Part shown: positions 19,068-31,627 of the stretch, in pieces
How positions within the stretch are numbered: the first letter of the stretch is position 1
How the letters are laid out: each line of letters opens with the position of its first letter
Source: a virus
Taxonomy: Duplodnaviria; Heunggongvirae; Uroviricota; Caudoviricetes
Direction: 5' to 3' (one strand)
Virus record (IMG/VR): IMGVR_UViG_3300032315_001694
DNA: 31,627 nt
Notes under the pieces: generated by a model
Told to the model about the DNA's origin: nothing
What the model saw: the letters and a program-made list of their open reading frames with translations, nothing else
Database searches by the model: none
Program-made: the position numbers and the translations under genes

Positions 19068-19706
19068 TTAATTGAGATAATTGTTCATTACTCTTTCAAT
19101 TCCTGGTTTAGTAGATTCTGGAATCTCATAGTGAACTCCAGTAGAATCCTCGACTTGCATACCACCTAATCCTGTTGCATATTGAGCTAAAGCCCACCTC
19201 CACGATTCATCATTTGAGAACTTTCTTGACCAATCATTATGTAAGTCATATAAATGATAAGCTCCAGCCTTTATATTATTTTCTGGAGTATTACCACCTG
19301 CAAGATCTAACTTAGCAGAACAATAATTAAATGTTTGTGGCATCATTTGCATATAACCCATCGCACCCGAACCTTCAGAATTTTCAATAAATCTAAATCC
19401 TGACTCTCTATCCACCACACTAAAAAATATAGAGTATGGTATATCATATTTATCACATTCCGAAACCATAAGTTCAAAAACTCTTGGATCCAAATCTAAA
19501 AAGTTTTCTCGATGAATGAAATTACAATCATTCAATATAACATTTTGGAAATAACCTCTTTTAAATTGATTAGACTTTGTAATTACCGAAACGGTAATTG
19601 ATTCATATGGCATTGCTAGTTGTATAGATTTACTTGGAATGCTAACATTCTTATAAAAAATCAAAAATAAAAAAACTAGTAATATAAATATTTTTTTAAA
19701 ATTCAT
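19068..19706 (-). CDS. SLT-domain lytic transglycosylase with N-terminal hydrophobic anchor
   Basis: RESGF catalytic Glu, GAMGYMQMMPQT, NIKAGAYHL, ALAQYATG motifs. Confidence 0.85.
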   Translation of the reverse strand: MNFKKIFILLVFLFLIFYKNVSIPSKSIQLAMPYESITVSVITKSNQFKRGYFQNVILNDCNFIHRENFLDLDPRVFELMVSECDKYDIPYSIFFSVVDRESGFRFIENSEGSGAMGYMQMMPQTFNYCSAKLDLAGGNTPENNIKAGAYHLYDLHNDWSRKFSNDESWRWALAQYATGLGGMQVEDSTGVHYEIPESTKPGIERVMNNYLN

Positions 19707-20696: not shown

Positions 20697-21506
20697 TTAA
20701 ACTGCGACCTGCGTGGTTCCTTTCATATACATTTCTTCAAATTTTTCTATTCTATCTAACAACTCTTTAATTGTTATAACAGATTTTTTGTTTTTACTTA
20801 TATTATCATTATGTATCATCAATCTACAATTAGCAGGATGTGAAATTATTTTTGGATCTATATCCATTTCAAATCCCTCTCTAACTGATAACATATGATC
20901 TCTACTTACACCACCCAAATTATTTTTTTTATTTGTTGGTGAATACCATCCATATTTTTCAACTAAGGAAAAATCGAATTCATCTGAATAATCTTTAAGA
21001 TTGAATTTGAAATTGGAATCTAACCTATACTTCTGATATTCGTCCATATTTTTTCTTCTAAAACTTTTTCTACATTCAGAGGAACAATAACTTAAATCAT
21101 TTCTATCTTTTTGAAAAATATTTCCACAACCTTTACAGGTAATATCATAAATACCAATTTTACCTTCTTCCTTAATACCATTTTCTATAAGATATTTATG
21201 TATTGATTTTCTTATTTTATCTCCCCAGGTGACTTCTCTTCTTCCGTTTGATTCACTTGCAAAGCAAGAGTGATTACAATAATTATTGTCCTTAGAATCA
21301 TATGGTATTATAGTATCACAATGAAGGCATTTCTTTGGATTTTCTAAATACTTTTCTTCTCTTTCTTTTTTCTTTTGTTGGAAAGTATCTGATACTTTAT
21401 CATAATTTCTCAAATATTTATTCACAAATATGTTTCTACAAGTAAGAGAGCAATAAACTCTCTTACCAGTAGTTTCGTTTTCACATTCAATATTTTTACA
21501 CTTCAT
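20697..21506 (-). CDS. Putative HNH-type homing endonuclease with N-terminal CxxC..YCSxxC Zn-finger repeats
   Basis: Three Zn fingers (C..C...YCSLTC, CLHC...YCNHSC, CKGC...YCSSEC); C-terminal SRDHMLSV...ISHPANCRLMIHNDNISK. Confidence 0.75.
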   Translation of the reverse strand: MKCKNIECENETTGKRVYCSLTCRNIFVNKYLRNYDKVSDTFQQKKKEREEKYLENPKKCLHCDTIIPYDSKDNNYCNHSCFASESNGRREVTWGDKIRKSIHKYLIENGIKEEGKIGIYDITCKGCGNIFQKDRNDLSYCSSECRKSFRRKNMDEYQKYRLDSNFKFNLKDYSDEFDFSLVEKYGWYSPTNKKNNLGGVSRDHMLSVREGFEMDIDPKIISHPANCRLMIHNDNISKNKKSVITIKELLDRIEKFEEMYMKGTTQVAV

Positions 21507-21524
21507 AATTTAATATATTTTTAT

Positions 21525-21534
21525 TATATATTAA
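21525..21534 (-). promoter_or_regulatory. TTAATATATA motif within a 10-bp inverted repeat (21509-21535)
   Basis: TTTAATATAT-N7-ATATATTAAA ends 2 nt before ATG 21506. Confidence 0.6.
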
Positions 21535-21586
21535 AGTGGAGAGTTTCCCTATTGAACTATCAACTAGTGATTTTTGCCATACCCCG

Positions 21587-21662
21587 TGGAGCTGGTCGGA
21601 ATCGAACCGACCACATACACTCTTTGCAAAAGAGTCCCGCCAGCCTTGGAACATGCAACCCC
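21587..21662 (-). tRNA. trnA: tRNA-Ala (UGC)
   Basis: Acceptor GGGGTTG/CAGCTCC with G3.U70, A73; anticodon arm ACTCT-TTTGCAA-AGAGT; T arm GTCGG-TTCGATT-CCGAC. Confidence 0.92.
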
Positions 21663-21667
21663 ATGTG

Positions 21668-21740
21668 TGGAGAATAACGGATTTGAACCGATAAATCTTG
21701 CCAGCCAGACAAGTGTTTTAGCCAATTAAACTAATTCCCC
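21668..21740 (-). tRNA. trnA: tRNA-Ala (GGC), atypical U37
   Basis: Acceptor GGGGAAT/ATTCTCC with G3.U70, A73; anticodon arm CTTGT-CTGGCTG-GCAAG. Confidence 0.82.
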
Positions 21741-21778
21741 TGGAGCAGGCACCGTGATACAACGGTGGATCATCCTGC
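21741..21778 (-). other. 38-nt minihelix-like spacer element ending in U-CCA
   Basis: GCAGG-ATGATC-CACCGT-TGTATC-ACGGTG-CCTGC-T-CCA; abuts the 5' end of tRNA-Ala(GGC). Confidence 0.4.
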
Positions 21779-21783
21779 ATTTG

Positions 21784-21857
21784 AGTCGATAACCGGGATC
21801 GAACCGGCTCTATTCCTGCTTGGCAAGCAAGTGCACCACCATTTATGCGTCATCGAC
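21784..21857 (-). tRNA. trnG: tRNA-Gly (GCC)
   Basis: Acceptor GTCGATG/TATCGAC, U73; anticodon arm CTTGC-TTGCCAA-GCAGG. Confidence 0.9.
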
Positions 21858-21861
21858 ATTG

Positions 21862-21935
21862 AGCAGGAGACCGGGATCGAACCGGCTCTATTTCTGATTG
21901 GAAGTCAGAAGCACCACCATTTATGCGTCACCTGC
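21862..21935 (-). tRNA. trnG: tRNA-Gly (UCC)
   Basis: Acceptor GCAGGTG/CTCCTGC, U73; anticodon arm TCTGA-CTTCCAA-TCAGA. Confidence 0.9.
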
Positions 21936-21985
21936 GAGTTTTACATCCTGGTGGGATGAGTTTTTAAGAGTTTTCTTTCTCTTTG

Positions 21986-22056
21986 AGCGGATAGTCAGAA
22001 TCGAACTGACGTCACAGGCTTGGAAGGCTAGTGTAATACCATTATACGATACCCGC
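21986..22056 (-). tRNA. trnG: tRNA-Gly (UCC), anticodon stem with two mismatches
   Basis: GCGGGTA..TATCCGC, U73; loop CTTCCAA; T arm GTCAG-TTCGATT-CTGAC. Confidence 0.85.
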
Positions 22057-22064
22057 AAATATTG

Positions 22065-22154
22065 TTGGCGAAGTGGGATTCGAACCCACGTTTGAAATTA
22101 TCTCAAGATACCGCTACAGGTATAGTGTGTATAAGACACCACTGCTATTCGCCA
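22065..22154 (-). ncRNA. Non-canonical tRNA-like element (7-bp acceptor and T arm intact, no standard D arm, anticodon ambiguous)
   Basis: TGGCGAA/TTCGCCA; hairpins GGTGT-CTTATAC-ACACT, ATACC-TGTAGC-GGTAT, TTGAG-ATAAT-TTCAA; T arm GTGGG-TTCGAAT-CCCAC. Confidence 0.65.
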
Positions 22155-22156
22155 AT

Positions 22157-22190
22157 AAAAAAACCCAGTCATTTTTGATATGACTGGGTT
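22157..22190 (-). terminator. Intrinsic terminator/attenuator hairpin between leader A and the Gly/Ala tRNAs
   Basis: AACCCAGTCAT-ATCAAAA-ATGACTGGGTT (11 bp) followed by a U tract ending 2 nt before the first tRNA-like gene. Confidence 0.88.
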
Positions 22191-22224
22191 ATATTTTTCA
22201 AAATGAAACTTTTATCTCGTTCAT

Positions 22225-22296
22225 TTACATAACACAGCCATTGACTGACGCTCCCGCGCCGCCCCCTATAATCGATATGTTTGTAAATGTATTCAT
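22225..22296 (-). CDS. Leader peptide A, MNTFTNISIIGGGAGASVNGCVM (23 aa)
   Basis: Codons 11-16 are GGG GGC GGC GCG GGA GCG, a GC-rich island in AT-rich DNA; A-rich sequence precedes the ATG; followed by the terminator. Confidence 0.82.
   Translation of the reverse strand: MNTFTNISIIGGGAGASVNGCVM
22229..22241 (-). promoter_or_regulatory. Candidate antiterminator strand of attenuator A
   Basis: AUGGCUGUGUUAU can pair with AUAACCCAGUCAU (22192-22180, terminator 5' arm): 12 of 13 positions including one G.U. Confidence 0.75.
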
Positions 22297-22318
22297 TTCA
22301 GTTTTTATTTTGTAATGT

Positions 22319-22328
22319 TATATATTAA
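22319..22328 (-). promoter_or_regulatory. TTAATATATA motif upstream of leader A
   Basis: Exact motif 22 nt before the leader ATG. Confidence 0.55.
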
Positions 22329-22366
22329 AAGTTTTCAGTCTCTTTTGACTATTTTGATTTATAATA

Positions 22367-22398
22367 CAAATATATTATAAAGTTTTTAATTAACCAAA
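22367..22398 (-). promoter_or_regulatory. Bacteroidota-type sigma promoter (TTTG-N20-TATATTTG) for leader A and the Gly/Ala tRNA operon
   Basis: Exact consensus match with a 20-nt spacer. Confidence 0.7.
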
Positions 22399-22442
22399 TT
22401 TATTTTTATATCATTTCAATTTCACAATATACACTAATACGT

Positions 22443-24416
22443 TTAACCTCCTATGGTGAAAATTACATTATCAATTGTGCCTTTATAACCTATTCTTTGT
22501 GCTTTCTTATCACTTGCTATTAATTTAACTATTTTAATAATAGTTGAATTTTCAGTGAGTGGCGTTTCAAACTTTTGTGTAGTAGAAACTTTACCTAAAT
22601 AATCATTTTCCAATTTATAGATCTGTCTGGCAAAACTCTCGATTATTTGATTCACACTGCTTTTTCCAATAGTTATACTAATTTTAAATGGATGTATATG
22701 TTTTATTAAACTCTCATATTTATATAATTTGTTAAAATTAGTAAGACCATAAATAGACAGTTCTAAATCTGAATAGTCTTTTTTAACAACTTTTTTAACT
22801 TCTTTATTAGTGAGGTCCAAGTACCTATTTACTTTCAAATCGATTGGAAGATCAAAGATATCATTATGCTTATAAATAGTAACCACATTGTCTTTGTTAT
22901 GTATTATTTTTTGATAATTTTTTTGATAATCACCACCAACACTTTCAGGCGAATTACCGACTAATGAATTTAATATTACTAGATTAGCTTCAAAATTACT
23001 GGACATTTTAATACCCAGTCCTTCTTCTACATTATAGTCTATTGAATTAGAATTATAAATTTTGTTATATTTATCACAAATTATTTTAGCAAGTTCTTTA
23101 GAAATTTTTAGACTGGAAGGGCTATTATCAATTATGCCAGATCCAAAATAGCGAGCCTTAGTAGATTTTACAAAAGCTTCTTCATTCCACAAATTATCTA
23201 ATAATGCCTGCTTTAATGCACTATCTTTTGGTATCTCGTGTGATTGAGTTTTAAAAATGTTTGGATCTACTAATTTACCGGATAACCTGTCGGTAAAATA
23301 ATTAGCACCTTTAAATATTTCTTCTACTTTATTTAAGGTAACATAGATGTCATCTTTGAATATTTTTTCCAAAAAATTTGATAATACGTTATTCCTAGCG
23401 CTATCAGATTTAGTCCAAGTATTAAACTTACGTGCCCAATTAATACATTCTTCTTTTGAAAGTGTTGGTATTACCTCTAACCATCTGTTTGTTGTGGTGG
23501 ATGATGACAATTTTGCATAAACTTTTTCTTTTCCATCATTTGCAGCACCATAAACTAACTTATGAACTTCATCCATACTAACCTCATAGTCTTGTAACAT
23601 TCCTTTAATCTTGTCTTGTACACTACTATCTAATATATCATGTGCTGCACGAAGTGAACCATCTGGTTTAAGTGTTACTCCTATTTTAAACTTTACATCA
23701 TATTCGTCTAGATTGTAATTTAGAACTATTATTTGCTTATTACCTTTAGTAATGTATGTGTTCCACATACTTTCAGATGAAACGATACACCAAGCTGTAT
23801 CATATGCAAGTTTTTTAATATCTTCCCAATTTTTGACATAAATAACAACAATATTATTTTTTTCAAATATTATTTTGGATTCTAGTCCTTGTAAAAGCTC
23901 TTTAACATTATCTAAGTCATTCTTAGGATCTTTACTAAAGACCTTCATAGCACTTAATAAACTGTCATAAGATTTATATCTGGAAATTTTACTAAGAAAA
24001 ACATCTATATTAGATTTATCAACTAATTTTAATATTATATTTTTCGTATCAAATCCAATATTATCTTTCTTAATAAAAGATTTTTGTAAGCTGGGCAATT
24101 TATTGATAAAATTATTAATTTTAATTTTGTTATTAACGATTTCGATTTCATCAAGTAATTTTTCATATTTAAATTTGTTGATATCAATGGTTTGATTTTT
24201 CTTCTTTAATGTGTCTAATTCTGTAGCAAGTTTTTTTAGATCCTCAAATGATATATTTTCTTCAAATAAATATTGTGTAAATTTACCAATATATCCTAAG
24301 TTTTTGCTTAATAGTTGTTTTAGCTTTTCAAAATCCTCAAATTTCTTCTTAAAAATTGATTTAGCCTGGTCCATATTTTCATTTAGAAAATCTCGATATT
24401 TTAGAATTTTGCTCAT
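22443..24416 (-). CDS. Hypothetical protein (657 aa), candidate internal head protein
   Basis: N-terminus MSKILKYRDFLNE; TTAATATATA 6 nt upstream (24423-24432); YDTAWCIVSSESMWNTY motif. Confidence 0.75.
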   Translation of the reverse strand: MSKILKYRDFLNENMDQAKSIFKKKFEDFEKLKQLLSKNLGYIGKFTQYLFEENISFEDLKKLATELDTLKKKNQTIDINKFKYEKLLDEIEIVNNKIKINNFINKLPSLQKSFIKKDNIGFDTKNIILKLVDKSNIDVFLSKISRYKSYDSLLSAMKVFSKDPKNDLDNVKELLQGLESKIIFEKNNIVVIYVKNWEDIKKLAYDTAWCIVSSESMWNTYITKGNKQIIVLNYNLDEYDVKFKIGVTLKPDGSLRAAHDILDSSVQDKIKGMLQDYEVSMDEVHKLVYGAANDGKEKVYAKLSSSTTTNRWLEVIPTLSKEECINWARKFNTWTKSDSARNNVLSNFLEKIFKDDIYVTLNKVEEIFKGANYFTDRLSGKLVDPNIFKTQSHEIPKDSALKQALLDNLWNEEAFVKSTKARYFGSGIIDNSPSSLKISKELAKIICDKYNKIYNSNSIDYNVEEGLGIKMSSNFEANLVILNSLVGNSPESVGGDYQKNYQKIIHNKDNVVTIYKHNDIFDLPIDLKVNRYLDLTNKEVKKVVKKDYSDLELSIYGLTNFNKLYKYESLIKHIHPFKISITIGKSSVNQIIESFARQIYKLENDYLGKVSTTQKFETPLTENSTIIKIVKLIASDKKAQRIGYKGTIDNVIFTIGG

Positions 24417-24490
24417 ATGTGATATATATTAAATATTTTTTGTATTTCTAAGTAACATCAACTTTTATAATTTTCCAAATTATAAATTAA

Positions 24491-25195
24491 ATGTTAAATA
24501 CAGGATTTGGTGCCAATAAATCTGATGCTATCAGATTACTTCAAACTACTATAAATATATTGGAAGAGTTTAACATAAATCACTTTTTAATTTCAGGAAC
24601 TTTATTAGGTTACATTAGACATAATGATTTTATTCCGTGGGATGATGATATTGATATATTGGTAGATGAAAGCTTTTTAGATAAATTACAAAAAATATCT
24701 GAAAAATATCCTAATCTGAATATTTTCAGAAAGACCAAACATAAATATGATTCAATTAAATTTTGTTTTTCAGATGGTACAGAGATACCTGAGAATCTTT
24801 CTGTAAAAGAATGGAGAGAAAATTCTATATCTAAAGATAATAAATATTGCTGGCCTTTTATAGATATTTTTATTTATGAAATGGGTCCAGGATTACATAG
24901 TTGTTCTCGTGAGTTTAAAGAAGAAATAATTAATAATATACCTATAAAAATATTTCACCCATTCTCTGGACAATGTTCAGAATGTTTTCGACTATTTTCA
25001 GAAAATGAAATATCATTTTTTCATAATGAATGGAATAAATCAGAATTCTTTCCACCAAAAAGAGTTAATTTATTAGGAGTGGATTGTAATATTCCAAAAA
25101 ATCCAGATTACTTTTTAAGTCTAAACTATGGACCAAATTACATGACCGAAATAAAACCACCAACTATAATACATAAAATAGAAAAAGTAATATGA
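24491..25195 (+). CDS. licD: LicD/fukutin-family nucleotidyltransferase-fold phosphotransferase
   Basis: SGTLLGYIRHNDFIPWDDDIDI, FIDIF and IPKNPDYFLSLNYG motifs. Confidence 0.9.
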   Translation: MLNTGFGANKSDAIRLLQTTINILEEFNINHFLISGTLLGYIRHNDFIPWDDDIDILVDESFLDKLQKISEKYPNLNIFRKTKHKYDSIKFCFSDGTEIPENLSVKEWRENSISKDNKYCWPFIDIFIYEMGPGLHSCSREFKEEIINNIPIKIFHPFSGQCSECFRLFSENEISFFHNEWNKSEFFPPKRVNLLGVDCNIPKNPDYFLSLNYGPNYMTEIKPPTIIHKIEKVI

Positions 25196-26895
25196 TAGAA
25201 GATATTAAAAACCACATCGCGACTGGAGTAGATGCTAAAATATTACAGTATGAAGAAAATGCTGTCGATATTTCAGATGATAAAATTGACTTAGTAGAAA
25301 TATTAGGAGGAAAACAAAATTGCATTCTCATCAACATGGAAAAGGATGTTCAAAGATATCATACATCAGTGGATCAATTAAAGAAAGTATCAATTAAAAA
25401 TTTTGTACACTTAAAAGGCACTGATGGAAGAAATAAAGATAAAAAATATCTTGAGGATGATTTAACTTATATACTTCAGTTTCTAAGTCAATTTAATTCA
25501 GATATAGAACTTAAACAAATAAAAATAAATGATTTTTCTGAAATAAATGACAGTGGTGTTCATATTCAAGATGGACCGCTAGGCTGTTATTGTTCTCATT
25601 TAAGGGCTCTAATTTATGGATATTTAAACTATGAAGATTATACAATTATCTGTGAAGATGATATATCGATAACAAATACTGAGAAAATTGAAAAGTATAT
25701 AAAACAAATTCCAAATGATTGGGATATTATTTGTTTGAATTCAAGAGCAAAAAACATAAGTTACGGAGATTTACCTTTTTATAAATTCACTGATGATTTT
25801 CATTCAGGTCATTTTTATATTGTTAAGAATGAATGTTTGCCGATTTTATTTAGTGGAATGTATCCGATGACTGACCAAGTAGATGTTCTTATGGCCAGTA
25901 TGGTTCATAAACTAAATATCTATAACATACCAGATACGGTTTATCAAAAGAATATTAAAACAAATACCCAAAATAATTTGAGTATTATATTTAGCTCTCC
26001 TAATTATAAATCAGTTACCGAATCATTAAGCAACTCTGAGGAAATATTAAATATTTTAGCTAATAAAATTCTTACAGATAATGAAGAAAGAAATAAAATT
26101 ATTGTTAAAAGTTTAATGCATGATGTTCTTTATAACTTCATACTAACTGATGGAATAAACAATGAACCTGGCCCAAATATTGAAAATTATCAATTTGATA
26201 ATATTTATAAAGATGATCCCGATTTTATTCTTTTAGAAAAATATATCACTTTCTTCTTACAGTGCTCTAGAAAAGGAATTAATCCTCAATTGTCCGCCAA
26301 AGGATTATCAAATGTTTGCTTATTCACGTTAGATAAATTTAGTGAATTACATAACACACTAAATGAATCTGGAGAAATAATAAAAGCTCATAGTTTTGGT
26401 TCTACTGCACACACATATAAAATTGGAGATAATCTACTTAAAAGATATAATAATAGATTAAGATGGGCCACTGAAGGTCATGAAAATGTTGATGATATAA
26501 TTAGTAAAGAATTAGATTTATTATCAAAAGTAGGATCAAAAGTAATATGGAGTAATAATAGAAATATTTTGATGCCTTATTATGGTGAATCGTTATATAA
26601 TGATTTCAATCTACCAACCGATTGGAAAGAACAGATAACTAAAATATTCTCAGATTTAACTAATAAAGGCATTTTTTATCCAGAGTTTAGATTACAAAAT
26701 ATATTGACCTTAAATGGTAAGATCACATTTGTGGATTTCGGATTAGCAGAATTTAGAACCGAATGTGATAATACAGAGAATCTTAATAAGTTTATTAAAT
26801 ATTTAAGTTTAATGGAAGTAAGGTTTAGAAATGTTAATGATATAGATGAACTACATAGGCTAATTTCAACTTTCTATTTGAATAAAGGATTATAA
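25192..26895 (+). CDS. Glycosyltransferase family 25 domain fused to a C-terminal protein-kinase-like domain
   Basis: GT25: CILINMEKDVQRY, GTDGR, LGCYCSHLRAL, IICEDD. Kinase-like: GSTAHTYKI, FYPEFRLQNIL, ITFVDFGLA. ATGA overlap with licD. Confidence 0.8.
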   Translation: MIEDIKNHIATGVDAKILQYEENAVDISDDKIDLVEILGGKQNCILINMEKDVQRYHTSVDQLKKVSIKNFVHLKGTDGRNKDKKYLEDDLTYILQFLSQFNSDIELKQIKINDFSEINDSGVHIQDGPLGCYCSHLRALIYGYLNYEDYTIICEDDISITNTEKIEKYIKQIPNDWDIICLNSRAKNISYGDLPFYKFTDDFHSGHFYIVKNECLPILFSGMYPMTDQVDVLMASMVHKLNIYNIPDTVYQKNIKTNTQNNLSIIFSSPNYKSVTESLSNSEEILNILANKILTDNEERNKIIVKSLMHDVLYNFILTDGINNEPGPNIENYQFDNIYKDDPDFILLEKYITFFLQCSRKGINPQLSAKGLSNVCLFTLDKFSELHNTLNESGEIIKAHSFGSTAHTYKIGDNLLKRYNNRLRWATEGHENVDDIISKELDLLSKVGSKVIWSNNRNILMPYYGESLYNDFNLPTDWKEQITKIFSDLTNKGIFYPEFRLQNILTLNGKITFVDFGLAEFRTECDNTENLNKFIKYLSLMEVRFRNVNDIDELHRLISTFYLNKGL

Positions 26896-26930
26896 TTATA
26901 AGTTGGTATTTTAAATTATTAGTTTAAAGT

Positions 26931-26940
26931 TTAATATATA
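26931..26940 (+). promoter_or_regulatory. TTAATATATA motif
   Basis: Exact motif 23 nt before ATG 26964. Confidence 0.55.
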
Positions 26941-26963
26941 CCATTAGAAAAAAAAATACAAAT

Positions 26964-27284
26964 ATGAAACACATTAAAAAATTCAATGAGAGTCTTGAAA
27001 GAGGACAAATTATATTTTCAGGGGAAACTAAAAATGGTTGGAAATATAATATAGTATCAACTGATGGTTCAAGAGATGAATTAAAATTAACATCAGAAAG
27101 AGGATCAGATTTAGATGCCAGTGAAATGCTACATGAAGCAGTTGATGCTTATATTGAGGGAGGTTCAAGCACTAAGGGATTTTTTGTTGATGTTGAAGAT
27201 ATAACAGAAGCTTATGATAAAATGATGTCACTTGTTGACCATGCTTCAAGTTTAGATGGTTTGGTTACCATGGAAGATATTTAA
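26964..27284 (+). CDS. Small acidic protein (106 aa), candidate internal head protein
   Basis: N-terminus MKHIKKFNES; late-type motif upstream. Confidence 0.7.
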   Translation: MKHIKKFNESLERGQIIFSGETKNGWKYNIVSTDGSRDELKLTSERGSDLDASEMLHEAVDAYIEGGSSTKGFFVDVEDITEAYDKMMSLVDHASSLDGLVTMEDI

Positions 27285-27292
27285 TTTTTTTT

Positions 27293-28114
27293 TCATATCC
27301 TGCCATTCAATGTATTTACCTTACAATCTGACTTTTCTTTTATCAGTTTAGTTAGAAATTCTAAATCATCTGATCCATATTCAATTAATCTATATTTAGA
27401 TATCTTCCATTGAATTACATCTTTGAATTTATCAGGATCTTGCTCACCATTTTGATTTCTACTATTATCATAAAATCTTTTAATTAAATCTTTTTGAGCA
27501 TAAAAGAACAATAAAGTATTTCTATTTTTTATTGTCGTATTAAAACCGTGATATGAATAAAAATGTGGAGCAAAAAAAGAAACACTATTCGGAACATATT
27601 TTGAAACCTTACATGGTTTCAAATCTTTATCATAAAGTATTGTTCCATTATCTAACTCTTCTTGCTCCGTTAATTCATTCTCTGGGATATAAAAAATAAC
27701 TGATATAAATTGAGCGGGTATATCAGTGTGTATTTTCTGAAATCTATTTTCATCTGTATAAACAAATTGTAAATCATGATTAAAACACATCTCATCTACA
27801 TGATTACCATAATAAAACTTTTTCATTAGAGCATCTTTTATCTCTCTATCATCAAATACATCTCTAACTATATCAATCTCTAAATCATTAATATCTTTTA
27901 AACTAAATTTCTTATTCATGAAATTTGGGTTATCCCAATTCCTATCTTGTAAATTTTCATTGTATTTATAATACAACATTTTATCTTTTAATGCCTGATA
28001 AAAATCATTTGGAAAAATATCATTAACATAAAGATTATAAAAAGGATAAATATTTACATCTGTTAATTCTATCTTTTTTAAAACATGATATTTAATATCC
28101 TTAATAGATGTCAT
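27293..28114 (-). CDS. 2OG-Fe(II) dioxygenase
   Basis: IHTD (HxD), NGTILY, distal YHGF and RNTL motifs of the DSBH fold. Confidence 0.8.
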   Translation of the reverse strand: MTSIKDIKYHVLKKIELTDVNIYPFYNLYVNDIFPNDFYQALKDKMLYYKYNENLQDRNWDNPNFMNKKFSLKDINDLEIDIVRDVFDDREIKDALMKKFYYGNHVDEMCFNHDLQFVYTDENRFQKIHTDIPAQFISVIFYIPENELTEQEELDNGTILYDKDLKPCKVSKYVPNSVSFFAPHFYSYHGFNTTIKNRNTLLFFYAQKDLIKRFYDNSRNQNGEQDPDKFKDVIQWKISKYRLIEYGSDDLEFLTKLIKEKSDCKVNTLNGRI

Positions 28115-28721
28115 TTATAGTAGTTATTTTTCTAAGATATTTATCATCACCGAGTATTAGGTTATAATCATATTTTAACTTAGATACAATTGGCAAAACC
28201 TCACAATATATATTACTCTCAATATATTCTCTAAAAATAGACTTGAATAATTTAAAATTAGTTATTTGTGGAGAACATAATTGAATATATTTATCTCTAT
28301 TAGGAATTTCCCAGGAACCAGATTCATTAATCTTAGCCAATCCATTAACAATTGGAAGATAATATTGAGAATGGAAATTATTCTTTTGAGATTCAATTAA
28401 ATTATTAATACAATCTTTTGTTATGAAAGGTCGAGCTGCATCATGAATCAAAATATTTGAATAATCATCATTAAGATAATCCAAAGCAGTTTTAATAGAT
28501 TTAATTCTATCATCAACATCATTTACTAAAATCTTATTATTAGTTATAATTTGACTATAACAAGTTGAATTAGTTATTATAATAACCTCATCTAACAACC
28601 GATTTAATATATCAATTGAGTGATTGATAATAGGCTTACCATTAATTGTATAAAGTTGTTTCGGAATAGAATTATTAAATCTAGAACTTTTACCAGCGGC
28701 TAAAATTATACCAACATTCAT
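28101..28721 (-). CDS. ispD: IspD/TarI-like cytidylyltransferase (206 aa; start re-assigned to ATG 28721)
   Basis: GIILAAGKSSRF..PKQ, ILIHDAARPFI, KITTINDI motifs. Confidence 0.88.
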   Translation of the reverse strand: MNVGIILAAGKSSRFNNSIPKQLYTINGKPIINHSIDILNRLLDEVIIITNSTCYSQIITNNKILVNDVDDRIKSIKTALDYLNDDYSNILIHDAARPFITKDCINNLIESQKNNFHSQYYLPIVNGLAKINESGSWEIPNRDKYIQLCSPQITNFKLFKSIFREYIESNIYCEVLPIVSKLKYDYNLILGDDKYLRKITTINDIY

Positions 28722-28770
28722 ATAACTTATATAAAAAAAACAATTAGAGTTTTTCATCTATAATTAGAAT

Positions 28771-29016
28771 ATGTATGACCAAAATGAAAAATTAAAAGAA
28801 ATTATCAACTCTGATAAATTAGATATAACACTAACTATGAATATCTTAATTAATGCTGTTAAGGCTAATTGGGAAAAATTTAATACTGTTGATAAATTCT
28901 TAATTGGGAAATCCTTACAAACAATAGAATACTATTTTGAAAAAAAAGAGGATATTGTTATTAAATTTAAGAAGGATGTATTCCCAGTCGGTGACGATCC
29001 GACTTCTTCTCGCTGA
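28771..29016 (+). CDS. Hypothetical protein (81 aa); last ~12 codons are antisense to tRNA-Glu(CUC)
   Basis: ORF track; plausible helical sequence. Confidence 0.55.
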   Translation: MYDQNEKLKEIINSDKLDITLTMNILINAVKANWEKFNTVDKFLIGKSLQTIEYYFEKKEDIVIKFKKDVFPVGDDPTSSR

Positions 29017-29052
29017 GAACGAGATGAACTAACCAACGTATTCGATGGGAAC
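28979..29052 (-). tRNA. trnE: tRNA-Glu (CUC)
   Basis: Acceptor GTTCCCA/TGGGAAT; anticodon arm TCTCG-TTCTCAG-CGAGA; T arm GTCGG-ATCGTCA-CCGAC. Confidence 0.82.
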
Positions 29053-29796
29053 ATTTTTTTTATATATTTTTATCCACTTCCTGATAGAATTATCCGATAC
29101 TCCATATTTCCTACCAACTCCAACATATCCAAGTAAAGATATTTCTTCCAAAAGTTCTTCATAAGGTGGTCTTTGCACTTTTCTTCTTTTTTCCATAGCC
29201 TCAATAAAAGTATCCTTTTTAGAATTTATAATTTCTATACCTTTACTATTTTTATGATAACAAGACTTACAAGTTTTACTATCTTTTCGTTTTTTATTAC
29301 CACACTCACATAAATCAAATCTTGTATATTTATCTTCCTTTTTTACATTTAATCCACGACAATGAGTTTCTAATGTTGCGTTACAATTTGGACAAACAAT
29401 TCTTAAATTTTCAATTCTGTTATCGTGTCTATCACCATTGATATGGTCTAATATAAGTGACATTCTTTTACCTTGCCAGGTTTCATCTTGATGACATAAC
29501 TCACAAATTGGACTCTTTAGATTAAGTTTATACAATTTATTTTTTAAGTGATTTGTTGACTTGTAAGTCGAATTTTTGACTAAAACCTCTGATATTTCTC
29601 TAGCAACAAAAAATCCTCTTATACCTACTTGTTTATGTGGCTCAAAATGAGATACGTCTATATTGTTATTAGTGATAAAATAAGATAGTGTATTGTAATT
29701 ACCTCCGTTATTTTTAAGATTAAGTTTATTCAAAACATCAGTTTTATTGATAGATTTTGAAATGATTTCTTTTATATATTCAGTATTTTTCCACAT
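29029..29796 (-). CDS. HNH homing endonuclease inserted in the Tyr/Glu tRNA array (255 aa; start re-assigned to ATG 29796)
   Basis: CELC...LDHINGDRHDNRIENLRIVCPNCN; C-terminal Zn ribbon and HTH-like segment; TTAATATATA at 29814-29823. Confidence 0.88.
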   Translation of the reverse strand: MWKNTEYIKEIISKSINKTDVLNKLNLKNNGGNYNTLSYFITNNNIDVSHFEPHKQVGIRGFFVAREISEVLVKNSTYKSTNHLKNKLYKLNLKSPICELCHQDETWQGKRMSLILDHINGDRHDNRIENLRIVCPNCNATLETHCRGLNVKKEDKYTRFDLCECGNKKRKDSKTCKSCYHKNSKGIEIINSKKDTFIEAMEKRRKVQRPPYEELLEEISLLGYVGVGRKYGVSDNSIRKWIKIYKKNVPIEYVG

Positions 29797-29846
29797 AAAA
29801 TTTATTTTTATTTTATATATTAAAATACCGAGCCTCCCTAAATGAG

Positions 29847-29934
29847 TCGGAGTGGATGGATTTGAACCACCGATGTTTACCACTTGGGTAGGAAATTTAC
29901 AGTTTCCTGGGATCAGCCTCTACCCTACACTCCG
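29847..29934 (-). tRNA. trnY: tRNA-Tyr (GUA) with C1-G72
   Basis: Acceptor CGGAGTG/CACTCCG, A73; GGAAA-CTGTAAA-TTTCC; long variable arm. Confidence 0.85.
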
Positions 29935-29939
29935 TTTTG

Positions 29940-30010
29940 TACTCCCGAGCGGTTACGATCCGCCGTCTATGCAGTGAAAGTGCATCGATCTTCCATTAAT
30001 CTACGGGAGC
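29940..30010 (-). tRNA. trnE: tRNA-Glu (UUC)
   Basis: GCTCCCG/CGGGAGT; ATGCA-CTTTCAC-TGCAT; T loop ATCGTAA. Confidence 0.85.
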
Positions 30011-30017
30011 ATTTTAG

Positions 30018-30105
30018 TGGGTGTGGTAGGACTCGAACCTACGATGTTAGTCATAAAGACCTCTGGTTTACAGCCAAAGCCAATCGCCGCTATGGTGACA
30101 CACCC
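30018..30105 (-). tRNA. trnY: tRNA-Tyr (GUA)
   Basis: GGGTGTG/CACACCC, A73; TTTGG-CTGTAAA-CCAGA; long variable arm. Confidence 0.9.
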
Positions 30106-30110
30106 TTTCG

Positions 30111-30181
30111 TAGCTCGTAGGGGTAACGATCCCCTCTTTCTTGGTTGAAAACCAAGCGTCCTTCCTCTAGACGAACGAGCC
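30111..30181 (-). tRNA. trnE: tRNA-Glu (UUC)
   Basis: GGCTCGT/ACGAGCT; CTTGG-TTTTCAA-CCAAG; T loop ATCGTTA. Confidence 0.85.
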
Positions 30182-30187
30182 AAGTTG

Positions 30188-30275
30188 TTGGAGTGGAAGG
30201 AATCGAACCTCCTAAACACCCATACGCCATTTTTTAAACTGTGGGGGCTTTACGTGCCCCTGCCGTTACACTCCA
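30188..30275 (-). ncRNA. Non-canonical tRNA-like element (7-bp acceptor and T arm intact, no standard D arm, GUA-containing hairpin)
   Basis: TGGAGTG/CACTCCA; GGGGC-ACGTAAA-GCCCC; T arm GGAGG-TTCGATT-CCTTC. Confidence 0.65.
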
Positions 30276-30298
30276 TTTTATATTTCAAAGAACTCTAA

Positions 30299-30337
30299 AA
30301 ACAAAAAACCCAATCAAGTCTGAGTTGATTGGGTTTT
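30299..30337 (-). terminator. Intrinsic terminator/attenuator hairpin between leader B and the Tyr/Glu tRNAs
   Basis: AAAACCCAATCAA-CTCAGAC-TTGATTGGGTTTT (13 bp) continuing TTGTTTTT. Confidence 0.88.
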
Positions 30338-30359
30338 ACGAGTTTCAGTTATTTTATAC

Positions 30360-30455
30360 TTAACTTAAACACATAGCCTTATCAACTACGAACTTTTGCT
30401 CATATTCATAACCTTCATAAGAAGAAACGATTGTTATGTTTGTAGTGTTAGACAT
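30360..30455 (-). CDS. Leader peptide B, MSNTTNITIVSSYEGYEYEQKFVVDKAMCLS (31 aa)
   Basis: Codons 13-19 are TAT GAA GGT TAT GAA TAT GAG; followed by the terminator. Confidence 0.82.
   Translation of the reverse strand: MSNTTNITIVSSYEGYEYEQKFVVDKAMCLS
30377..30387 (-). promoter_or_regulatory. Candidate antiterminator strand of attenuator B
   Basis: AGUUGAU-AA-GG can pair with CC-CA-AUCAACU of the terminator 5' arm and loop (7 bp + 2x2 internal loop + 2 bp). Confidence 0.55.
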
Positions 30456-30491
30456 TTTATTTAAGTTTTACTTTGTTTTCTAATTGTTTTA

Positions 30492-30523
30492 CAAATATAA
30501 GATGATTTTTTTGTATCACCAAA
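30492..30523 (-). promoter_or_regulatory. Bacteroidota-type sigma promoter (TTTG-N20-TATATTTG) for leader B and the Tyr/Glu tRNA operon
   Basis: Exact consensus match with a 20-nt spacer. Confidence 0.7.
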
Positions 30524-30547
30524 TATTTTTTGAAATATTTTTGTTTG

Positions 30548-30628
30548 TTGCGGGAAGAGGATTTGAACCTCTGTCTTACATTGTTCCGGGTTATGAGCCC
30601 GGTGACCTTACCACTAGTCCACCCCGCG
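30548..30628 (-). tRNA. trnfM: Initiator tRNA-fMet (CAU) with a 13-nt variable loop
   Basis: C1.A72 mismatch; CCGGG-CTCATAA-CCCGG with three G-C pairs next to the loop. Confidence 0.87.
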
Positions 30629-30638
30629 ATGTTTTTTG

Positions 30639-30710
30639 TAGCGGGAGTAGGAATTGAACCTACGACCTCAAGGTTATGAGCCTTGCGAGCCACCACTGCT
30701 CTATCCCGCA
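30639..30710 (-). tRNA. trnM: tRNA-Met (CAU), initiator-like
   Basis: TGCGGGA/TCCCGCT with a U1.U72 mismatch; CAAGG-CTCATAA-CCTTG (only two G-C pairs adjacent to the loop). Confidence 0.85.
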
Positions 30711-30725
30711 ATATTTTATAGATTG

Positions 30726-30735
30726 TATATATTAA
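30726..30735 (-). promoter_or_regulatory. TTAATATATA motif upstream of the Met tRNA pair
   Basis: Exact motif 15 nt before the tRNA 5' end. Confidence 0.5.
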
Positions 30736-30795
30736 AAAGTTTTAGTCCCTTTTTAACTTTTTTCAAAAATTGTTTCAGTTCTTGAACCAACAATA

Positions 30796-30826
30796 CAAAG
30801 ATACGGATTATTTTTGAACTGCCAAA
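30796..30826 (-). promoter_or_regulatory. Bacteroidota-type sigma promoter (TTTG-N19-TATCTTTG) upstream of the Met tRNA pair
   Basis: Consensus match. Confidence 0.6.
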
Positions 30827-30839
30827 CTTTTTTCAAAAA

Positions 30840-31256
30840 TTATCTTTTATAAACTTCAATCACTGTAGCATCTGTTGGTATTGTATAGTATTTACTAAAA
30901 TTTTCTATAAATGTTTTCACATTTTTGACCGGTTTGAAAGATATTTGATTAGCTCTATTTCTAACTTCAGCATTTATCAAACAAGATTCTGGATCATTCT
31001 CAAAATAAATCCAATCTATTTTAACATCTGGACTAATCGATTTAATCCTTTCTTCTGCCTTTTGACGATTTTTCTCAAAACATAACTGAGGATCTGTTAT
31101 AATCAAATCCCTATCTAAATGTGGTTGAATATCTGTCTCAAAGTTCTTTGGATCATCTATAATCAAATATTTTCCACCATTATCTTTATTAATCTTCTTA
31201 GCCAAAGTGGATTTACCACTTCCTGGAAGACCAACTATGAAAAGTATATTGGACAT
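30840..31256 (-). CDS. P-loop kinase / AAA_33-like protein (polynucleotide-kinase-like)
   Basis: IVGLPGSGKSTLA Walker A, LIIDD, LIITD, CLINAEVRNR lid-like motif. Confidence 0.72.
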   Translation of the reverse strand: MSNILFIVGLPGSGKSTLAKKINKDNGGKYLIIDDPKNFETDIQPHLDRDLIITDPQLCFEKNRQKAEERIKSISPDVKIDWIYFENDPESCLINAEVRNRANQISFKPVKNVKTFIENFSKYYTIPTDATVIEVYKR

Positions 31257-31627
31257 TAGAATGAATTATTTTCTGACAGAAATTGATACAAGTCACCTAA
31301 AGTGATATAATAACAAGAATAATCATCATAGTTACCATAATATTCATTGTGACTTCTTGAGTCTTCATGAATTATACTTGAATCATTATACAAGATTTGA
31401 CATAATTCTTGAGGTGATTTCTCATTAGCATGTGATGATAAGATATCATCAAGAATTGGCTTCAAATAACTAAATATAAAATCATTCAAATCTAATGAAC
31501 TACCATCATACGGTTGAGCACCATCATCATCACCAGTGTCCCAACAAGAACCACCAGAAGCACCACCAGTATTTACTTCAGCATAAAGGAAAACATTTCT
31601 TTTTTTCCAATCAAGTGAGTTTTCTAA
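31256..31627 (-). CDS. Hypothetical protein, 5' end beyond the window (>123 aa; the track's 77-aa ORF is its C-terminal part)
   Basis: Frame open from 31627 (LENSLDWKKRNVFLYAEVNTGGASGGSCWDTG...) into the track ORF; ATGA-type coupling to the next gene. Confidence 0.7.
   Translation of the reverse strand, partial: LENSLDWKKRNVFLYAEVNTGGASGGSCWDTGDDDGAQPYDGSSLDLNDFIFSYLKPILDDILSSHANEKSPQELCQILYNDSSIIHEDSRSHNEYYGNYDDYSCYYITLGDLYQFLSENNSF

Follow-up and report, generated by a model that had tools for sequence, protein, structure and literature searches.

A putative leader-peptide attenuator in front of tRNA-Glu and tRNA-Tyr genes of an uncultured tailed phage

Introduction

In Escherichia coli, the pheM leader of pheST is a leader-peptide attenuator of synthetase genes. 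To our knowledge, leader-peptide attenuation has been described in amino-acid biosynthesis and for a small number of synthetase genes, but not for transfer RNA (tRNA) genes. In this study, we describe module B, a probable ribosome-mediated (leader-peptide) transcription attenuator that, judged from its sequence and from RNA fold models, would gate a tRNA operon of a tailed phage (Caudoviricetes; IMG/VR record IMGVR_UViG_3300032315_001694). The whole stretch of DNA analysed, called the window below, is 31,627 nt long with a G+C content of 29.7%, and all relevant features lie on its minus strand. The mechanism has been reviewed for the classical trpL, hisL, leuL, thrL, ilvL, and pheL attenuators of enterobacteria (PMC1183508), and His-codon leaders stand before hisS paralogues in bacilli (PMC2965389).

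Module B shares with the classical leaders a promoter, a short open reading frame (ORF) with a run of cognate codons, mutually exclusive antiterminator and terminator structures, and the genes to be regulated behind them. Its mixed Tyr/Glu run has a parallel in the multivalent thr and ilv leaders. The classical leaders control enzyme genes, whereas the genes here are phage-borne tRNA genes, with feedback on the tRNA supply. In trp, an untranslated leader super-attenuates; in contrast, read-through is predicted for an untranslated module B, in which no 1:2 anti-antiterminator was found. As with the pheST and hisS leaders, a translation component would be controlled by the decoding speed of its own cognate codons, but those leaders govern the charging enzyme and module B would govern the tRNA itself, and hosts and sequences are unrelated. 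T-box leaders also use terminator/antiterminator control that reports on a specific tRNA. However, they bind uncharged tRNA via one specifier codon and a conserved T-box sequence without translation, whereas an ORF would do the sensing here.

The nearest database relatives of the window are unannotated "uncultured phage" genomes of 630-735 kb and Lak phages. The tRNA array content of the window is that of the huge-phage genomes LR745206 and LR756501-4 and of Lak phages. The records of LR745206 and LR756501-4 carry no annotation, and we take them to be huge phages of the type of Al-Shayeb et al. 2020. Leader modules like those of the window are present in LR745206, LR756501, LR756502, and LR756504. 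A full-text literature search, outside which most subscription journals lay, returned no description of leader-peptide attenuation of tRNA genes and no paper on leaders or terminators before huge-phage tRNA arrays.

Results

Leader ORF, promoter and tRNA genes of module B

The positions of the features are collected in Table 1. Codons 13-19 of the 31-codon leader hold 3 Tyr codons (TAT) and 3 Glu codons (GAA, GAA, GAG) within 7, as a preliminary description of this locus had stated, and Tyr and Glu tRNA genes lie downstream. Among the 183 ATG-started short ORFs (sORFs) of 15-50 aa in the window, leader B alone has a stretch of 7 residues of which 5 or more belong to {E,Y}, and the leader of the paralogous module A alone has such a stretch for {G,A}. 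Using the background f(E+Y) = 0.106 from the long ORFs of the window, we calculated a probability of about 9e-6 for at least 6 E/Y in a given 7-residue stretch and of at most 2e-4 over the peptide, the residue set being chosen in advance. The signal of leader B is a local run, like that of classical leaders.

The promoter motif TTTG-N20-TATATTTG of module B was also found by pattern scan before leader A, the Met tRNAs, and a third module, module C. It is retained in the relatives, and its flanks vary. The 5' untranslated region (UTR) contains no Shine-Dalgarno sequence, as is the case for the other genes of the phage, and the start context of the leader ORF resembles theirs. Promoters of the TTTG / TAnnTTTG form and translation initiation independent of a Shine-Dalgarno sequence are Bacteroidota traits. 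Together, the promoter form and the missing Shine-Dalgarno sequence suggest that the host phylum of this phage is Bacteroidota.

Behind the terminator, the Glu(UUC), Tyr(GUA), Glu(UUC), and Tyr(GUA) genes and, past the HNH gene, Glu(CUC) were all found in the order given in the preliminary description; the Glu/Tyr tRNAs between 29846 and 30181 match Rfam RF00005 at 44-55 bits. Three elements were added to that description, namely the promoter, the full extent of the antiterminator, and a non-canonical tRNA-like RNA as the first gene past the terminator. An acceptor stem and a T arm are present in this RNA, the loop ACGUAAA resembles an anticodon loop (GUA = Tyr; C33 for U33), a D arm is absent, and a helix ACGGC/GCCGU wraps the anticodon arm. 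It was called neither by ARAGORN nor by Rfam. Helix-weakening changes occur in several relatives, and therefore the tRNA-like RNA may be decaying or may work unlike a tRNA.

Table 1. Features of module B, of modules A and C, and of neighbouring genes. Positions are those of the window except for module C, which lies on contig L024, followed about 12 kb beyond the window start.
Feature	Position	Strand	Basis
Two tRNA-Met(CAU) genes, upstream of module B	30547..30710	-	ARAGORN
Module B promoter match, Bacteroidota type, TTTG-N20-TATATTTG	30492..30523	-	pattern scan
Module B predicted 5' UTR, about 30 nt, A-rich	30456..30486	-	inferred transcription start
Module B leader ORF, 31 codons + stop, MSNTTNITIVSSYEGYEYEQKFVVDKAMCLS	30360..30455	-	ORF list
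Module B regulatory run, codons 13-19, TAT GAA GGT TAT GAA TAT GAG	30399..30419	-	sequence
Module B antiterminator hairpin (predicted)	30323..30387	-	pre-terminator folds, shuffles, growing-chain fold, covariation
Module B intrinsic terminator, 13-bp stem, 7-nt loop, then UUGUUUUU	30297..30337	-	fold
Non-canonical tRNA-like RNA	30189..30274	-	Alifold consensus
tRNA-Glu(UUC)	30181-30110	-	ARAGORN
tRNA-Tyr(GUA)	30105-30017	-	ARAGORN
tRNA-Glu(UUC)	30010-29939	-	ARAGORN
tRNA-Tyr(GUA)	29934-29846	-	ARAGORN
HNH endonuclease gene inside the array, not part of the switch	29029..29883	-	Pfam HNH_3
tRNA-Glu(CUC), past the HNH gene	28978..29052	-	ARAGORN
Module A, paralogous	21587..22398	-	same part order as module B
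Module A promoter	22367..22398	-	pattern scan
Module A leader MNTFTNISIIGGGAGASVNGCVM, I/G/A	22225..22296	-	ORF
Module A terminator	22162..22190	-	fold
Module A Ile(UAU)-type tRNA	22064..22154	-	re-reading of ARAGORN "tRNA-Tyr(ata)"
Module C, third attenuator-like module	L024 19337-18833	-	contig followed beyond the window start

Terminator and predicted antiterminator

The 13-bp terminator hairpin expected after the leader is present as AAAACCCAAUCAA-CUCAGAC-UUGAUUGGGUUUU (30337..30305; -14.7 kcal/mol), and a spacer of 22 nt separates it from the ORF. The segment AGUUGAU, which had been noticed as complementary to the terminator 5' arm and loop, starts 11 nt past the run and can pair with AUCAACU, in which 5 nt come from the end of the 5' arm and 2 nt from the loop. 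When the RNA before the terminator 3' arm was folded, AGUUGAU formed the base of a long imperfect hairpin, the predicted antiterminator, in which AGUUGAU..GG.CUAU.GUUU.AGUUA pairs with UAACU.AAAC.CGUA..CC..AUCAACU. The final nine codons lie within this hairpin, as do the stop codon and the spacer, and of the terminator 5' arm it takes in 8 of 13 nt.

Since equilibrium folds with a masked ribosome footprint were not discriminating, pre-terminator folds, growing-chain folds, and barrier calculations were used. The antiterminator has an energy of -15.9 to -17.2 kcal/mol, depending on the run codon occupied by the ribosome. In the pre-terminator minimum free energy (MFE) structure, a stall at each run codon left the 5' arm sequestered over 8 of its 13 nt, and with the ribosome at the stop codon 0 of 13 were paired. 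The pairing gain of the 5' arm was -9.6 kcal/mol; when the upstream segment was shuffled 300 times with its dinucleotides preserved, the gain averaged -1.4 (p = 0.003). The probability of 5'-arm sequestration was about 0.6 at all A-site positions through codon 19 and 0.5, 0.2, 0.1, and 0 at codons 20, 21, 22, and 23, respectively, so that the antiterminator is predicted to collapse 1-3 codons past the run. It was also predicted with the leader ORF fully ribosome-free.

In a growing-chain fold with the ribosome stalled at codon 16, the antiterminator was the MFE structure until nucleotide 146 of the 151 of the hairpin region. The direct-path barrier from the antiterminator to the terminator fold was about 12.8 kcal/mol; by our estimate, refolding over it would be slow compared to the crossing of the U tract by the polymerase. 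Two doubts raised in the preliminary description were not borne out. The antiterminator had been thought weaker than that of module A, and the values are about -16 to -17 vs. -16.4 kcal/mol. A terminating ribosome had been suspected not to cover AGUUGAU fully, and in the folds this segment need not be covered: a ribosome past about codon 21 melts the hairpin.

Conservation, variants and covariation

The identical leader B peptide was found in 162 blocks of metagenome assemblies. Sample data that contain this phage include the ENA KRAE22-1 and GROS21-1 assemblies and Logan ERR2848561. Among 12 aligned loci picked by peptide identity, the order Met, Met, leader, terminator, and Glu/Tyr tRNAs was kept, and the loci differed in how many tRNAs they have, in the tRNA order, and in which endonuclease genes are inserted. 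None of the 96 leader ORF columns and none of the 42 terminator columns was variable, and the 5' UTR varied in 1 of 36 columns. In the adjoining spacers, 17-18% of the columns are variable, and in the downstream tRNA-like gene 53% are. Because the loci had been retrieved by peptide identity, only the missing synonymous change and the invariant terminator are informative here.

Three unbiased variants were obtained by a scan anchored on the terminator alone. The first has an extra in-frame TAT in the run together with GAU>GGU, by which the AGUUGAU:AUCAACU helix is kept via a G.U pair. The second has a synonymous GAA>GAG within the run, and the third a Cys>Tyr change near the leader C-terminus. 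The reading frame of the leader was retained in all relatives and variants. Apart from the whole-codon insertion of the first variant, indels lay in the flanks and none in the ORF.

Compared to LR745206 and LR756502, the antiterminator core covaries: GUUGAU:AUCAAC in the window is replaced by GUCAGAC:GUCUGAC, with four two-sided changes. The covarying core tracks the terminator arms and starts 3-11 nt past the run in the window and the homologues, whose run regions differ (SYEGYEYEQ in the window; SYESYYEEG and GYTGYEGAYSE in the homologues).

Within IMG/VR, a search with the neighbour proteins returned one locus, non-syntenic and with no tRNAs. An exact 37-mer of the leader had no match there, and a degenerate pattern of the module matched 8 times by chance without revealing a module.

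Matching of leaders and tRNA arrays

The correspondence between leader codons and downstream tRNAs recurs in the huge phages. In LR745206, MNTITNIASYESYYEEGNLVRRNNYVVM stands before Glu x3, Tyr, Glu, and Tyr, and in LR756502, MNRFTNIETIGYTGYEGAYSELLVRPLSML stands before Glu, Tyr, Glu, Tyr, and Glu. Behind each of these B-type modules comes an A-type leader that precedes canonical Ile(UAU) and Gly tRNAs. A Met/Gln/Ile leader stands in front of Met, Gln, and Gln in LR756501, and in LR756504, Gln/Asp/Lys/Tyr leaders stand in front of Asp, Tyr, Tyr, and Gln.

The complete genome of LR756502 is 642 kb long. All seven of its multi-tRNA arrays have a promoter, an sORF, a terminator, and a matching composition, with the leader sets F/H/K, R/S, E/Y, I/G/A, N/L/V/I/T/R, P/D, and QQQQQQQ; the Gln leader MTTSFQQQQQQQINRTD precedes four Gln tRNAs. 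Only two isolated tRNAs of this genome lack a leader. When the leader-array pairing was permuted, the true pairing ranked 1/720 for the six types and 1/5040 for the LR756502 arrays. An antiterminator with the A site in or before the run was predicted in 17/17 modules, with collapse 1-4 codons after the run. In the Lak phage Lak-B5 (L029), the tRNAs are scattered single genes, and the detector used found no module.

Modules A and C and neighbouring genes

In module A, the tRNAs follow in the order Ile(UAU)-type, Gly(UCC) x2, Gly(GCC), Ala(GGC), and Ala(UGC). The gene called tRNA-Tyr(ata) by ARAGORN is better read as a non-canonical Ile(UAU)-type tRNA with the loop CUUAUAC. Its acceptor stem shows compensatory changes in relatives (GGCGAA/TTCGCC, GGCTGG/CCAGCC, GGCAGG/CCTGCC, and GGCGAG/CTCGCC), and a canonical tRNA-Ile(UAU) occupies the equivalent place in LR745206 and LR756502. 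The tRNA-Ala(UGC) gene (21587-21662, minus strand; G3:U70) escaped ARAGORN and showed up in Rfam only through a weak match to tRNA-Sec; the GCG codons of leader A are among those that it can read. Variants of module A have indels in the UTR and spacer and none in the ORF, the sole change in the Gly/Ala run is synonymous (GGG>GGA), and the terminator keeps its stem with a variable loop.

Module C consists of a promoter, the leader MKNLNLNMNNLLNMVNTLCIRTKSSGYAKFRFM (beginning MKNLNLNMNNLLNMVNTLCIRT...), a terminator, and tRNAs. The leader codes for Leu/Asn/Val/Thr/Cys/Ile/Arg, and the tRNAs are Leu(UAA), Leu(AAG), Asn, Cys, Val, Ile, Thr, Val, Thr, Leu(UAG), and Leu(CAA), with Arg(CCU) later; a full count gives Leu x5. 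The four Leu codons of the leader, CTA, CTC, TTG, and TTA, match the four Leu anticodons. A 42-aa sORF (MKIIMINGKVFAKV...) lies between the module C terminator and the first tRNA.

Most leaders of the window and its relatives, whatever their specificity, have x-(T/N/S)-N-I at codons 5-7 (ACA AAC ATA in the window). This motif may reflect common descent, a requirement of translation start-up, or an RNA pairing role. A third "TNI" sORF (MAEKKDTNIKIV...) in contig L006 lies inside the end of an HNH gene and was dismissed as chance. In leaders A and B, Cys is the third residue from the C-terminus.

The two Met tRNA genes upstream of module B have their own promoter (30826..30796) and no leader ORF, and their transcripts could also run into the module B attenuator. 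Downstream of this host-type promoter, at 30726-30754 (minus strand), we observed a shared motif AAAAAGGGACU-N-(U)AAUAUAUA. It occurs again in the module A 5' UTR (about 22315-22345, minus strand) and in module C (L024, about 19262-19290, minus strand), and is absent from module B. It could serve as a promoter specific to the phage or as a site for protein binding.

The last codons of the HNH gene inside the module B array overlap tRNA-Glu(CUC). At this site, relatives carry another HNH gene, a DUF559 endonuclease gene, or nothing; the tRNA arrays are therefore preferred insertion sites of homing endonucleases. A gene of the tRNA-His guanylyltransferase family (Thg1-like, Pfam PF04446; 19755-20683, minus strand) lies some 1 kb downstream of the tRNAs of module A. 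It has its own TTTG-N20-TATATTTG promoter and points to more tRNA maturation or repair functions in the region.

Discussion

The attenuator model

Module B combines a promoter, a leader ORF, a cluster of codons cognate to the tRNAs behind it, an intervening terminator, and, by computation, an antiterminator that depends on ribosome position. What the attenuator reading of the preliminary description predicts at the sequence level was found for the promoter, antiterminator, conservation, variants, covariation, and composition, and we consider this reading likely. Leader translation, ribosome-polymerase coupling, and regulated read-through are what we infer from these sequences.

In the proposed mechanism, host RNA polymerase would start at the TTTG-N20-TATATTTG promoter and a host ribosome would translate the leader. 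If charged tRNA-Tyr or tRNA-Glu were scarce, Tyr/Glu decoding would be slow and the ribosome would linger at codons 13-19. The AGUUGAU... segment would then pair with the emerging terminator 5' arm, giving a kinetically trapped antiterminator of about -16 kcal/mol, and the polymerase would read into the Tyr-like, Glu, Tyr, Glu, Tyr, and Glu(CUC) tRNA genes. If the run were decoded fast, the ribosome would move beyond codon 21 toward the stop codon and unwind or occlude the antiterminator; the 5' arm would be free, the 13-bp terminator would form, and transcription would end. Since the product (tRNA) would relieve the signal (slow decoding), the circuit would act as a negative-feedback homeostat of tRNA supply. 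With no convincing anti-antiterminator, an untranslated leader is predicted to read through, as a fail-safe ON state.

Several observations weigh against this model. The equilibrium fold of the complete leader is the terminator (P about 0.9) at any ribosome position, and therefore the switch works only if the antiterminator is kinetically trapped; in trp, too, the decision is a kinetic one. No convincing 1:2-type anti-antiterminator or pause hairpin was found in leader B. The full-length MFE structure offers only a weak ACUAC/GUAGU pairing as a possible anti-antiterminator, and a UAUGAGC/GUUCGUA hairpin in the run could be a candidate pause signal. Transcription-translation coupling is an assumption for the presumed Bacteroidota host.

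Statistical points weigh against it as well. A shuffle test at a single stall position gave p<=0.02 for the antiterminator in 5 of 10 modules; in the other five, including the homologue L026-B, p was 0.19-1.0, and that test left them unconfirmed. For part of these five, the high p arose because the chosen stall position already covered the antiterminator: the first stall codon cut it off in several modules (module C, p = 1.0), which the per-codon profile corrected. Over the whole leader B peptide, the E/Y enrichment was modest (6/30; binomial P = 0.09), and the signal is confined to 7 codons, one of which is Gly. A whole-peptide binomial is too blunt for short runs, and thus window-based counts over short stretches and permutation tests were used instead. 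In addition, the missing non-synonymous change among the 12 loci is partly due to their retrieval by peptide identity, and complete nucleotide conservation would fit a non-coding RNA too.

Alternative explanations

The alternative that survives best is that leader translation controls the tRNA genes by a route other than hairpin competition. Untranslated RNA could be the target of Rho or of a phage factor, the ribosome could affect how the RNA is processed or how stable it is, or it could push the polymerase through the terminator. The codon-tRNA match shows a link to decoding and not its route, and the equilibrium fold is compatible with these routes, as is the failure to find a convincing pause hairpin or anti-antiterminator in leader B. 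However, the antiterminator was significant compared to shuffles, it was placed at the run boundary in every one of the 17 modules, and its arm covaries with that of the terminator in homologues. We therefore regard a different route as unlikely.

In a somewhat less probable alternative, to which we give little weight, promoter, leader, and terminator together make up a small gene or small RNA that stands alone, with a Tyr/Glu run unrelated to the tRNAs. The tRNAs would then be transcribed by leakage through the terminator or from a phage promoter that went unrecognised. Nucleotide conservation that includes synonymous sites fits a functional RNA, and the AAAAAGGGACU..AUAUAUA motif near other tRNA units leaves room for non-host promoters. 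On the other hand, the match in composition is seen for different amino acids across 17 modules and ranked first in both permutation tests, and the extra in-frame Tyr codon of the first variant argues for a translated run. Moreover, the gap between the terminator and the first tRNA or tRNA-like gene is just 8 nt in module A and 30 nt in module B, too short to accommodate a promoter, and the pattern scan gave no promoter match in either.

The run might also sense tRNA without a ribosome, as in a T-box, with codon-anticodon pairing of uncharged tRNA stabilising the antiterminator. This would agree with run codons cognate to the downstream tRNAs and with the presence of an antiterminator/terminator pair. 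However, a cmscan of 21400-31627 gave no match to the T-box family (RF00230), to amino-acid leader families, or to any other Rfam leader family, even at E<=1. The run lies in an ORF with a conserved start, frame, and stop, indels fall in its flanks and not within it, and the insertion in the variant is a whole codon. Leaders with up to seven or eight amino acids, such as that of module C, misfit a single specifier, and direct tRNA sensing appears very improbable.

Finally, the idea that the sORFs encode functional peptides (modified-peptide precursors or regulators) whose linkage to tRNA genes is fortuitous would draw on the common N-terminal x-T/N-N-I and on the Cys third from the C-terminus of leaders A and B, but it is hardly credible, since homologous leaders keep composition rather than sequence, with C-terminal parts unrelated between phages, the Cys is lost in one variant, and no peptide-modifying enzyme family occurs among the scanned neighbour genes. 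For the same reasons of composition and neighbours, a reading as a precursor of ribosomally synthesised and post-translationally modified peptides (RiPP/PEARL type) was dropped.

Implications

If the attenuator model is true, phage tRNA genes would be regulated by demand, per amino-acid group, through a decoding-speed sensor, rather than being constitutive codon-usage add-ons. The odd tRNA-like elements behind two terminators read the Tyr and Ile codons of their own leaders, and leaders would help annotators to assign an identity to non-canonical tRNA-like genes of huge phages. The modules would also be compact, portable parts for codon-specific sensing.

A further reading, which is possible but which we hold only tentatively, is that the tRNA operons are an inducible counter-measure, off while host tRNAs suffice and switched on, operon by operon, upon the matching depletion. 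Depletion might then be caused by anticodon nucleases, other tRNA-targeting defences, or host shut-off. As an untranslated leader is predicted to read through, the operons would in that case be fully on when translation collapses, and huge phages might follow the state of the host decoding machinery codon by codon through an array of sensors.

The finding would bear on why phages carry tRNAs, whether for codon-usage compensation, for the replacement of degraded host tRNAs, or for escape from tRNA-cleaving defences. Each leader would name the codons that the phage monitors, and thus the question of what phage tRNAs are for becomes testable.

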